Below are positions 3,001 to 6,000 of a DNA stretch of 14,289 nt, piece after piece; within the stretch, counting starts at the first letter, position 1, and each line of letters starts with the position of its first letter. This stretch comes from a virus (taxonomy: Duplodnaviria > Heunggongvirae > Uroviricota > Caudoviricetes). A program made the position numbers. Location of the stretch: IMG/VR virus record IMGVR_UViG_2713896784_000007; one strand, written 5' to 3'.

Positions 3001-6000
3001 TTTTTTTACAACGCTTTGTATTTAATAGTATTGTTTTTTAGCGTGGGTGTATTGCCTCGGCGATGTAAGGAGAGATCAGAATTGCGTTGTTTAGTGAGTT
3101 GTATCTATTTATTTTCCAATAAATACAATTGGTTATGTGTTTTTTTGGGCGAGAGGAAAAGAAAACCCGGCATGGAGGCCGGGTTGATGATTAGCGGTGT
3201 GGCCTTGAGCGATAATGCTCACACACATGTTCAAGATTTCCATGCCTTATCCGTTCATAGGCATTCACATGAACTTCTCGATCGAATTGGTCATTCAAAT
3301 TGTATGTAGACATCTGTGTTTTCTCATATTGGCGGCAGCCCTACAACCGCTTGAAAAAATGTACCAGACGCGCTAAGGTTACATCGCAAATATTGTGTAC
3401 CTTAACAAGGGCTCCTTTTGGAGGCTCTGGTTAAACAGCATCAATGTCGGACTGGGGAGTTGGACATTGTGCTGAATGCTTTTGCATTATTGAGGCCGAA
3501 CGTAAACCTTCAGAATTGAAGAGATGCGTTCGGCTTCTTCGTTTGTGATATCGTTAGGAATGCCTTTAATCGTTACTGTAACCCCTGATTCAGGTCGAAG
3601 AACTACTGGAAGATCATAGGTATGAAGTGCATTAGCCTTGCCTTCGACTTTTGTTGGTTCGCCAGTCAAATCTTTTTCCTCACTGGATTCTTTGTCAATC
3701 GGAGTGTATGGGATTTCTTCACCAGACTGGAAAGCTACAAACTTTTTGATTGCACTTTCCATGCGGCTTTTATATGCAGTAATGCTGCTGTCGCTAGGCT
3801 TCGGCTCAGTTGCGTTGATGTATCGCTCGGCAAGCTCATTCACATCAAGCTGAGTAACATCACCCATTTCCTCTTCTTGGACTACCGTTAAGAGGCGAGC
3901 GGATGAGTTTTTTAAATTTCGAGCGGTGGCCTCCTTCATTATGTTCAGCGACATAAGCTCTTCAAGGAAGTCCTTGAATGCCTGCACGCTAACGTTTGAC
4001 TTTGCCATTTGCTCTCTCTCTAAGTTATTGACTCAGATCGAGTTTATCCAGGAATTGATTTGCATGCAAGACTCAAGTCTTGAGAATTTCCGTTCAAGAT
4101 CCACTCTCAATAAAAAAGGCCGCACCTCTGCGACCTTTCATCTCCTAAATCTCTTTTCTCTTACCTAAAGAAACAGCAGGCTGGGTCAGCCCTAACAACT
4201 TCAAGTGCATCGGTCAGAGAAAGCTCCGTGCTATACAGGTGTTATTTCATATCTTTTTGCATCCAATAAATTTTCCATCTGTCCAGAGAGCGGATGCACT
4301 TGATTCTTGTTGATGGCAGGACGTTTTTTCACCTGCCTCACCCTGCCATACAGGACGCTGCTCACCGATATCTATCGTCCGGTCATTGATGTTATAGACA
4401 ATATCCAGATCATTACGGATATACTCAGATGGCCTTATGCTTTCAATGAATAGATGAACTTCTTTTTGACCGCTTGATACTCATGGCCATTAAACTCCAT
4501 CTATCCTCTTTACCCAAACGTCTCTTCAGGCCATTGGCTGGCGATAACTTTCCCCACAACGGAACAACTCTCATTGCATGGGATCATTGGATATTGCGGG
4601 TTTAGTGGTTGTAGAAACACCTGACCGCTATCCCTGATCAGTTTCTTGAAGGTAAATTCATCACCACCAAGTCTGGCTATGCAGAAATCGCCGGGCTCAA
4701 CAGCTTGCTCAGGGTCAACCAGAATTAACATCCCGTCAGGAAAACTAGGTTTGGAACCTGTTGGTGCGGTCATTGAGTTACCTTCAACCTCAAGCCAGAA
4801 TGCAGAGTCACTGGCTTTTTTGGTTGTGCTTACCAATCTCTCCGCATCACCTTTGGTAAAGGTTCTGAGTTCTGGAGAGAACATCCCAGCCTGAACATGA
4901 GAAAAAACAGGGTACTCATATTGTTTTTTAACTGGGGCCGATGAGTATTCGCCAACAGGTGAAAATGTCCCGTCGTGGTTGAATGATATGTTATCAATAC
5001 CAAGGTATTTAAACACCACACCAATATCACTAAGAGATGGATGACGAGATCCGCGCAACCAGTGTCCAATTCCACCCTGCGTCATACCTAGCTCTTCGGC
5101 TAACTTCTCTTGAGTTATGCCGAGCTCTTTCATTCTGGATCTAGCCAGTTCATACCATTTCATTTTCATGTCCTTATTATTACGCTCTGTACTGGAACCA
5201 TCCATGCACAATGTGTATTTTTACTTGTATTTGAGAAGTACATATTGTATTTTTTTTATTCGTGGTTACTATGGAGGGCATATGAGCAACCTACGAAAAT
5301 ATCGAGAGTCACTGAATATCTCTCAAACAACACTTGCTAAGGCAGTTGGATGCACACAGGGAGCTATCGGACATTGGGAATCTGGTCGTCGCTTCCCAGA
5401 CCTTAAAACATGCCGTGCTCTTGTTGCGTGTCTAAACAAGTTAGGCGCAAAAGTAAGTCTTGATGACGTGTTCCCGCCGGAGCACAAAGCCGCTTAATAA
5501 GCGGAGCCGCTCTTTGTAACAACGGACATTCGTCCTACGTCGCTGAAAAGCGAGTCCCAAGATATCTGACCAACTAAGGCCATATGCGTTTCCACGCATA
5601 CCTTTCAACTAACTATTCACTATTGGAAATCTTAAGAAATGGAACGAACAAGTTACAGCAAACTATCACAGCGCGACGTTGATCGCGCAGAAACAGATTT
5701 ACTCATCAACCTGTCAACGCTTACACAGCGCGGTCTGGCAAAGATGATTGGCTGTCATGAATCGAAGATAAGCAGAACGGACTGGCGGTTTATTGCTTCG
5801 GTCTTGTGTGCTTTCGGAATGGCATCAGACATCAGTCCGATTAGCAGGGCTTTTAAGTATGCGCTTGATGAAATCACAAAGAAAAAATCCCCGGCTGCCA
5901 CCGAGGATTTTAAGCAAATTGATATGCAATTCTGAGGGAATTACTGGATCAATCCACAGGAGTAATTATGACAAAACGTCGTAAGAAATACCAGGAAAAA

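Follow-up and report, generated by a model that had tools for sequence, protein, structure and literature searches.

A protein–RNA–small ORF cassette in the cI–pL interval of Stx phages, a candidate toxin-antitoxin-like accessory module

The stretch of DNA considered here, called the window throughout, is the whole 14,289 nucleotides (nt) taken from the Caudoviricetes record IMGVR_UViG_2713896784_000007, and our interest lies in the interval between the repressor gene cI and pL. To judge from conserved gene order and boundaries, window positions 3157..4137 on the minus strand are one autonomous accessory cassette and not a lone gene: a protein of 173 amino acids (aa), named ORF173 after its open reading frame (ORF), is followed by a conserved structured RNA and by a second, very small ORF. 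We tentatively read this cassette as an autoregulated, toxin-antitoxin-like accessory module, in which ORF173 would be a protective regulator and the small protein a putative effector lying behind a structured leader. Its parts are listed below from the 5' to the 3' boundary, with folding free energies given as dG.

4109..4137, minus: upstream insulating terminator, 5' boundary of the cassette; 11-pair hairpin (dG -15.9 kcal/mol, z -3.75) followed by U6
4067..4082, no strand assigned: operator-like inverted repeat CAAGAC-N4-GTCTTG, read from the sequence; its promoter-proximal arm overlaps the -35 hexamer
4041..4069, minus: cassette promoter, -35 TTGCAT, 17 nt, -10 TAAACT; position conserved in relatives
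3487..4008, minus: ORF173, 173 aa; N-terminal domain (residues 8-94), linker (102-127), C-terminal domain (130-165)
3492..3537, minus: hairpin formed by the last ~46 nt of the ORF173 coding sequence (GAAGCCGAACG...CGTTCGGCCTC); dG -20.6 kcal/mol
~3314..3486, minus: pseudoknotted RNA of class 1, ~173 nt, from folding and covariation
3226..3351, minus: Hfq-crosslinking peak EcOnc20 after coordinate conversion; spans the last hairpin of the RNA, the ribosome-binding region and the greater part of the small ORF
3191..3313, minus: small ORF of type C, 40 aa (H0092 of AP000422; phrog_21154), MSTYNLNDQFDREVHVNAYERIRHGNLEHVCEHYRSRPHR; predicted beta-hairpin
3157..3185, minus: downstream terminator, 3' boundary of the cassette; 8-bp stem (6 GC pairs) and U-run (dG -14.3, z -3.66)

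A unit bounded by two terminators

The order protein, RNA, small ORF is kept in all 47 loci compared (E. coli, Salmonella, Proteus, Serratia, Erwinia and viral contigs), and in each of them the small ORF starts 115-175 nt past the stop codon of the ORF173 homologue on the same strand. The two frames are adjacent and co-oriented, with one promoter and one terminator. At the nucleotide level, the cassette is homologous to its Salmonella, Proteus and Serratia counterparts from the upstream terminator onwards, and the homology to Salmonella breaks off at the downstream one. The 300 nt that separate the ORF173 stop codon from this second terminator thus belong to the unit as well. An earlier note on this DNA had delimited the interval as 3155..4137, and between these bounds the sequence is indeed 86-90% identical to Salmonella prophages, whereas its flanks are unrelated. 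The same note had seen accessory cargo of the cI–pL slot in a single gene: the cargo part stands, since the unit has its own signals and a second insertion site that fits mobile cargo, whereas the single gene has to be given up, as a conserved structured RNA and a second gene lie between ORF173 and the terminator.

Most of the signals proposed in that note were recovered. ORF173 is a real and acidic ORF (isoelectric point 4.85, 29 Asp+Glu against 21 Lys+Arg); the tIMM-like terminator was found by our scan, and AP000422 annotates the terminator of the pRM transcript there. The upstream terminator folds well but does not directly follow cI, because a DUF3024 remnant intervenes. The promoter matches the consensus at only 7 of 12 positions and went unreported by a consensus scan, yet its hexamer positions are conserved in relatives, with -35 TTGnnn and -10 TAnACT at the same place in the alignment of 37/37 distinct homologous upstream regions. 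Other upstream classes also have an inverted repeat at or overlapping the -35, whose arms change together (e.g., GGATTCATCGATC...GATCGATGAATCC). As for the DUF3024 remnant, it occupies 4167..4480 (minus strand) between cI and the cassette, frameshifted and stop-containing; the intact Proteus DUF3024 protein matches it by tblastn in two frames with an internal stop, RefSeq calls in it a 53-aa fragment (4247..4408) that matches phrog_3467, and the gene is intact at the equivalent place in Proteus prophages.

By nucleotide identity, the window is the early region of Shiga toxin (Stx) phages. About 1.7 kb around the cassette is 100% identical to VT2-Sakai/Sp5, the Stx1-converting phage, Stx2 II, Nil2, 2851 and the PA series, and the same 1.7 kb is also matched in O157:H7 chromosomes. 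Across records ORF173 goes by the names ECs1184 (Sakai), H0093, ORF22, ORF b63, VT2-Sap23 and WP_001130059, always labelled "hypothetical protein". The cassette is found in 234 of 5,426 complete E. coli genomes, always at an identity of at least 99% and mostly in single copy. Because the deposited annotation places OL/pL (~2948..3023) and cI (4510..5163/5211) on its two sides, ORF173 fills the slot of lambda rexAB, as the earlier note had proposed. That note had also taken the interval to be AT-richer than its neighbours, in keeping with horizontal acquisition; the GC content of the cassette (0.443, against 0.459 for cI, 0.431 for 4160..4509, 0.424 for N-ea10 and 0.472 for the whole window) bears out neither the composition nor any compositional sign of a recent arrival.

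The survey of related prophages that the earlier note had suggested shows homologues holding the cI–N slot in Proteus, Serratia and Salmonella, where, on the same strand as an S24 repressor gene, they separate it from the gene of an N-type antiterminator. In every case the homologue is the last gene before N, while further cargo (DUF3024, a 345-aa ORF, an 81-aa ORF) sometimes intervenes on its cI side. More distant members use a second site in tail modules, where they run on the opposite strand and are flanked by the tape-measure gene and a DUF6246 gene; some others stand alone among chromosomal housekeeping genes. Two distant chromosomal loci keep the same order around proteins only 23-27% identical to ORF173, with a hairpin-rich spacer of ~150 nt, UCAAG/AUCAAC, loop-bulge complementarity, a small ORF and a terminator; the covariance model of the class-2 RNA described below scores weakly (14.8 bits, E 0.02-0.09) exactly past the stop codon of one distant protein. 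Two Planctomycetota-like loci encode a 252-265-aa protein, whose N-terminus looks like a winged helix, followed by a spacer with GUCAAG and a small ORF; the tail of this protein resembles the ORF173 C-terminal domain by eye only, the hmmsearch being not significant. As read from gene order, this range of contexts is that of an insertion cassette which is mobile and sufficient in itself. In tail modules, or alone in chromosomes, a module whose function is tied to OL/pL would not be expected.

One distant member of the ORF173 family (26% identity; loci L021/L022, 6001..7138) has neither the RNA nor the small ORF. It is followed, 2 nt downstream, by the gene of a 196-aa protein with a hydrophobic-looking N-terminus and preceded by an Amidohydro_2 gene, in an island that also holds AbiE, a PLD-helicase gene and Cas4.

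The structured RNA and the two proteins

The RNA of the window belongs to a class (class 1) that we aligned from 9 sequences of E. coli, Salmonella and tail-module loci. It starts just past the ORF173 stop codon with a hairpin, P1 (arms 3442..3453 / 3458..3469), and continues with a multi-branch domain closed by a long-range helix, a U-tract with UCAAG at ~3350..3362, and a terminal hairpin; the loop of this last hairpin, AGGGCU, forms a pseudoknot with AGCCCU further upstream. Folded alone, the window RNA reaches a minimum free energy of -54.4 kcal/mol (z -3.6); in the alignment, 89.5% of cells are paired against 28-43% in slid-partner controls, 12 pairs show compensatory change, and 0 of 500 shuffles reach the observed value. 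A second class, for which a covariance model was built and 24 sequences were aligned (Proteus, Serratia and many viral contigs), folds into seven helices including a pseudoknot between a bulge in the main domain and the loop of the last hairpin. There, 93.3% of cells are paired against 35-43% when partners are moved by 1-3 columns, 21 pairs are compensatory against 4-8 in these slid controls, none of 500 shuffles reaches the observed value, and the pseudoknot itself covaries (AGCAC/GUGCU, GACAC/GUGUC, GACUC/GAGUC, GUCUC/GAGAC). Compensatory changes occur in every helix of the spacer RNA, pseudoknot included, and it is these changes across sequences that support the pseudoknot, not the comparison of single sequences with their shuffles, which was not significant for it. 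The class-2 model leaves the class-1 RNA of the window undetected even with filters off, and the window RNA therefore rests on its own alignment of 9 sequences.

Searches against Rfam 15 returned only GadY for window positions 2800..4600 (20.1 bits against a threshold of 45), no match at the gathering threshold for five related loci, and only sub-threshold terminator-like matches in permissive scans of two loci (L064, L018). The small RNAs AsxR/AgvB and Pas, as well as svsR, were considered as candidates for the RNA and rejected, their positions being elsewhere (late region or 3' end of cI). The Shine-Dalgarno sequence of the small ORF is located just 3' of the last RNA hairpin. It is worth mentioning that the central ~14 nt of the P1 hairpin are reverse-complemented between E. 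coli (3437..3474, minus strand) and Salmonella (L012 5532..5569), so that the loop reads CCCC in the former and GGGG in the latter; the stem is retained, and both orientations are met among the tail-module loci. This inversion looks like the product of a template switch in a quasi-palindrome.

The small ORF of the window encodes a tiny basic, hydrophilic protein matching phrog_21154 (E 5e-8). The same-strand ORF that follows the RNA in 47/47 loci is of one of three related types: besides type C of the window, type A has 47 aa and four cysteines (Cys4, MATTIC.KCGNSCEVIFRPYIVDKNGKKRFPKNSRVFPIPVCGCDEI) and type B has 44-57 aa (...PAPPGFRWVFCRYRRVRNS.KVLDAH.YGYEAWCFLVR), intermediate sequences connecting A and B. 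Among distinct genes, variable sites fall on the first, second and third codon positions as 13/10/43 in type A and 26/21/54 in type B; ~6 synonymous codon changes and 2 non-synonymous ones, as counted by eye on the alignment, separate E. coli from Salmonella. Because variation is concentrated at third codon positions, the small ORF is, on its substitution pattern, coding and under purifying selection. As a family, these mini-proteins are mostly missed by gene callers. No Pfam or PDB relative was found for the small ORFs, and the AF2 model of the small protein shows only a low-confidence beta-hairpin. One further lead, that of a lambda-type integrase arm-binding N-domain, was abandoned: hhalign against the N-terminus of the integrase of locus L006 gave 0.2% probability, no Pfam Arm-DNA-bind match was obtained in 40 small-ORF members, and the hairpin model is of low confidence. 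A hydrophobic 53-aa ORF on the opposite strand (3215..3376, plus), examined as a type I toxin, was likewise discarded, as it is not the conserved partner.

Two further observations touch on small ORFs. In the chromosome of Vibrio campbellii (L100 4001..4147), a lone type-A small ORF points away from a BrxR/WYL regulator gene and from a series of unannotated genes, and is preceded by an inverted repeat (CAAGACTAGAGTCTTG) nearly the same as that of the cassette promoter in the window. In Salmonella and Serratia, a conserved acidic ORF of 58-67 aa (phrog_3946; L012 5861..6064 and L010 5871..6047, both minus strand) converges on the cassette between its terminator and N; it lies outside the cassette and is without counterpart in the window.

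Regarding ORF173, residues 8-94 form a four-helix domain like the core-binding domain of integrases (SAM-like), residues 102-127 an acidic disordered linker and residues 130-165 a beta-beta-alpha domain. The library match is phrog_2602, of unknown function (E 3.5e-102), while Pfam yields only the integrase N-terminal SAM-like domain at E 0.047, under its gathering score. There is no PF00589 match and no catalytic R-H-R-Y domain, only the linker and a 45-aa beta-beta-alpha unit after the N-terminal domain; on this domain content, ORF173 is not a recombinase. Forty-four close homologues were found in E. coli, Salmonella, Cronobacter, Yersinia, Proteus, Providencia, Morganella and Serratia, and a profile search of 1.8 billion cluster representatives returned 651 at E <= 0.001, the best 150 of which are mostly 157-208 aa long and aligned over nearly their full length; none of the members returned with precomputed Pfam annotations carries a domain. 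The alignment shows a conserved N-terminal region of ~100 residues with invariant TARNLKNS, Y79, S81 and R82, a variable acidic linker and a conserved C-terminal block of ~45 residues (LPVVIRPE.G.TVTI.GIP.D.T.EEAERI..ILKVY), and the protein is under purifying selection. Foldseek against BFVD gave nothing below E 0.16; sequence searches of ORF173 and the small ORFs in Pfam, NCBIfam, PADLOC and the PDB gave no significant match, to toxin, antitoxin and defence families or to any other, with 0 families of PADLOC-DB v2 at E <= 1.

The 3' end of the ORF173 gene is itself palindromic (3492..3537). In relatives, this hairpin shows a synonymous GAA>GAG change in one arm and GTT>GCT (Val>Ala) in the other, and the "...KAYVRS" subfamily lacks it. 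Two truncated loci are homologous only from cassette positions 592 and 594 onwards, close to where the palindrome begins; the palindrome may be a recombination breakpoint. These loci (L031 5007..5118 and L096 4000..4402) are independent of each other.

Expression, deletion and competing explanations

Lysogen expression, foreseen in the earlier note, is borne out by the conserved promoter position, by the EcOnc20 peak and by the presence of the ECs1184 protein in Sakai cultures. In a 2025 Nucleic Acids Research study (PMC7618764), the ECs1184 protein appears in the RNA-associated proteome (TRAPP) of Sakai at a false discovery rate of 0.065, below significance, and its PNK labelling signal is no higher than that of the GFP control; the protein is thus made in the lysogen and is not a strong general RNA binder. 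EcOnc20 is an orphan Hfq-crosslinking peak reported by Tree et al. 2014 (Table S2) in Sp5, minus strand, 1255628-1255753, without Northern blot validation. Its position in the window was obtained with an offset of ~+142 to NC_002695.2, calibrated on AsxR and stx2B, the window coordinate being the Sakai v2 coordinate minus 1252544; without this offset the peak would fall at 3084..3209, still overlapping the 3' end of the cassette (3157..3209) on the same strand. In the searchable literature, ECs1184 is named in two papers, and there only in passing.

Mondal et al. 2016 (PMC5155283) deleted the unknown-function genes of Sp5 one by one in a K-12 lysogen by sacB allelic exchange, leaving 9 nt at each ORF end. 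They obtained 43 mutants and failed for ORF21 (ECs1180) and ORF23 (ECs1184), judging both deletions lethal and proposing a role in stable lysogeny. Designed in this manner, the deletion of ECs1184 would leave the promoter, the leader and the small ORF intact. The other gene, ECs1180 (H0090, 83 aa, phrog_2471 of unknown function), is found in the window at 2176..2427 (minus strand), in the pL operon downstream of N.

Lesions that nature tolerates can be set beside this failure. In 644-PT8 (L098), IS1203 is inserted at ~4036, between the -10 hexamer and the ORF173 start codon; in NJS001 (L099, a record titled as a 438-kb plasmid), an IS3-family element at ~3350 within the RNA separates the small ORF from ORF173; and in the viral contig L096 everything upstream of the last 19 ORF173 codons is gone, with a terminator before the remnant and the RNA and small ORF intact. 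Each of these tolerated variants cuts the small ORF off from its promoter, which would silence it, and none has that promoter driving the small ORF in the absence of ORF173, the numbers being small. A third group of genomes (e.g., 06-3462) has an insertion sequence outside the cassette, between it and cI.

It is tempting to hypothesize that the cassette would be transcribed from its own promoter in the lysogen and that ORF173 would act as its regulatory and protective partner, binding DNA via the integrase core-binding-like domain and probably repressing the cassette promoter at the inverted repeat. The structured RNA would be a leader setting the output of the small ORF, and the small protein an effector, harmful when over-produced, so that the loss of ORF173 alone, with promoter, leader and small ORF kept, would be lethal. 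Such a module would be of the toxin-antitoxin or abortive-infection type, carried as prophage cargo; what we infer here comprises DNA binding at the inverted repeat, small-ORF toxicity, the role of the RNA and any anti-phage effect. This toxin-antitoxin-like reading, which we favour with reserve, accounts for the three-part linkage and its independence from prophage context, for the regulator-like architecture and the promoter repeat, and for a failed deletion that spared promoter, leader and small ORF together with the pattern of tolerated lesions.

Several points weigh against it. The cassette has no homology to known toxins or antitoxins (Pfam, NCBIfam, PADLOC); the small protein is hydrophilic and without enzymatic motif, with a hairpin model of low confidence; and ORF173 is acidic overall (pI 4.85), an unusual property in a DNA-binding protein. 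The missing ECs1184 mutant is a negative result, and the same screen also failed to yield one for ECs1180. The Vibrio locus has a small ORF and no ORF173 homologue, which is awkward for a small protein toxic alone. Among lineages, the small-ORF types, the RNA classes and the ORF173 subfamilies are freely recombined with one another, whereas the tail of a classical antitoxin co-varies tightly with its toxin. The genomes bearing an insertion sequence each have two matches to a longer query of 1,691 bp, which also takes in cI, and a second intact cassette may thus complement in trans; the homology of the class 1 and class 2 RNAs rests on position, architecture and shared partners.

The same parts can also be read as an undescribed ribonucleoprotein-type module, whose core-binding-fold protein, pseudoknotted RNA and beta-hairpin mini-protein would serve together as sensor, switch and effector. 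It would then define a new class of prophage immunity or addiction and a new RNA family, carried by temperate phages at lysogen-expressed sites in Enterobacterales and beyond; we hold this to be possible and, on balance, unlikely. The lysogeny-maintenance role put forward by Mondal et al. would have ORF173 act on the prophage control circuit, for instance at OL/pL or N, its loss inducing or destabilising the prophage and killing the cell. The unobtainable ECs1184 deletion, from which the authors' own proposal (PMC5155283) came, agrees with it, as do the DNA-binding fold and the constant place of ORF173 as the last gene before OL/pL-N in lambdoid prophages despite other cargo. Yet the three parts also reside on the opposite strand of tail modules and by themselves in chromosomes, where neither a repressor gene nor N is close by; the neighbouring cI and Cro genes differ in domain annotation between loci (annotation being all that was compared); the insertion uncoupling ORF173 from its promoter occurs in sequenced O157 lysogens; and the obligate RNA and small-ORF partner is left unexplained. 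We consider a direct role in lysogeny maintenance quite improbable.

Non-toxic superinfection exclusion or defence, the function suggested in the earlier note, would have ORF173, with or without the small protein, block phages in the manner of Rex, Nun or SieB, with no addiction-like behaviour. The position matches those of rexAB and HK022 nun, expression in the lysogen is autonomous, the loci are distributed as mobile cargo is, and the island with AbiE, the PLD-helicase gene and Cas4 houses a related subfamily; but PADLOC gave 0 matches, rexAB-type genes are dispensable where ECs1184 could not be deleted, and the single-gene view is wrong. We take exclusion without addiction to be a quite unlikely account. 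Still less probable, in our opinion, is an RNA-centred element, in which EcOnc20 or the pseudoknotted RNA would act via Hfq on host or phage transcripts with the ORFs secondary. Hfq does crosslink to the region in vivo, and the structure covaries across very divergent loci, UCAAG persisting in the Planctomycetota-like ones; against this, purifying selection acts on both ORFs, which are never missing beside the RNA, EcOnc20 lacks Northern validation, and the RNA occupies the exact place of a small-ORF leader, with the Shine-Dalgarno sequence just 3' of its last hairpin. Finally, ORF173 could be a recombination or architectural accessory, a stand-alone core-binding protein modulating a tyrosine recombinase or DNA structure in the fashion of an excisionase or directionality factor. 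The core-binding fold, the palindrome about where two truncated loci start and the inverted centre of P1 would speak for it; however, there is neither a catalytic domain nor a consistent linkage to an integrase, the lambdoid cassettes are far from int/xis, and a template-switch mutation in a quasi-palindrome gives the same hairpin-loop inversion. We regard this last explanation as highly improbable.

Two features elsewhere in the window may be recorded. Two N runs (masked bases) at 344..393 and 675..725 in the bet region appear as X runs in translations, and an antirepressor-like ORF (10635..11393) has a short in-frame tandem repeat at ~10860..10960 on the plus strand (...NLRVTLSNSQNLRVTLSNSQNL...).

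Significance and relation to known systems

The cassette is carried by the Stx2 phage of O157:H7 Sakai, where it adjoins the switch that controls induction of the Shiga-toxin phage. If ORF173 restrains a small effector, this would explain one of the two non-deletable genes of Sp5 and endow Stx prophages with a further selfish element, be it stabilising or anti-phage. Whatever the function, the cassette brings together a large uncharacterised protein family, a strictly linked mini-protein family and a covarying pseudoknotted RNA outside Rfam.

Compared with type II toxin-antitoxin and abortive-infection systems, the likeness lies in a compact operon of two genes that has a promoter of its own, with an inverted repeat at the -35, in a first gene with a DNA-binding fold, a flexible linker and a small C-terminal domain, in the fact that this first gene could not be deleted alone (PMC5155283), and in the mobile-cargo location. 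Unlike them, the cassette has no homology to toxin or antitoxin families, a pseudoknotted RNA of ~170 nt separates its genes in place of translational coupling, and the putative effector has only 40-57 aa, is hydrophilic and shows no recognisable activity.

With lambda rexAB, HK022 nun, 933W stk and BTP1 bstA, the cassette shares the cI–pL/N slot, the orientation of cI, expression in the lysogen and a tIMM-like terminator. Such genes are known by their defining domains, namely RexA/RexB, the arginine-rich motif of Nun and the KilA-N domain of BstA. In contrast, no Pfam, PADLOC, NCBIfam or PHROG-function match to such kinds is found in the cassette, the ORF173 N-terminus (MAKSNVSVQAF...) has no visible arginine-rich motif as in Nun, and the genes of that group are dispensable for the viability of the lysogen. 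The core-binding domain recalls the tyrosine recombinases lambda Int, XerD and IntI4, but the sequence similarity is sub-threshold (Pfam E 0.047), and ORF173 ends at residue 173 with no catalytic domain; even the catalytically dead SPbeta MrpR and phi3T SroF keep the full recombinase fold, which ORF173 does not. Like the structured leaders of ribosomal-protein genes, Mu com/mom and hok, the RNA has a covarying structure directly 5' of a small ORF and a last hairpin that abuts the Shine-Dalgarno sequence; unlike them, it belongs to no Rfam family and has a pseudoknot architecture that these examples lack. Pfam, PHROGs, NCBIfam, PADLOC, Rfam and the PDB describe no function for either protein family or for the RNA. 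The composition of protein, RNA and small ORF is not a known one, while the genomic logic, that of lysogen-expressed cargo by the repressor, possibly serving addiction or defence, is of a known kind.

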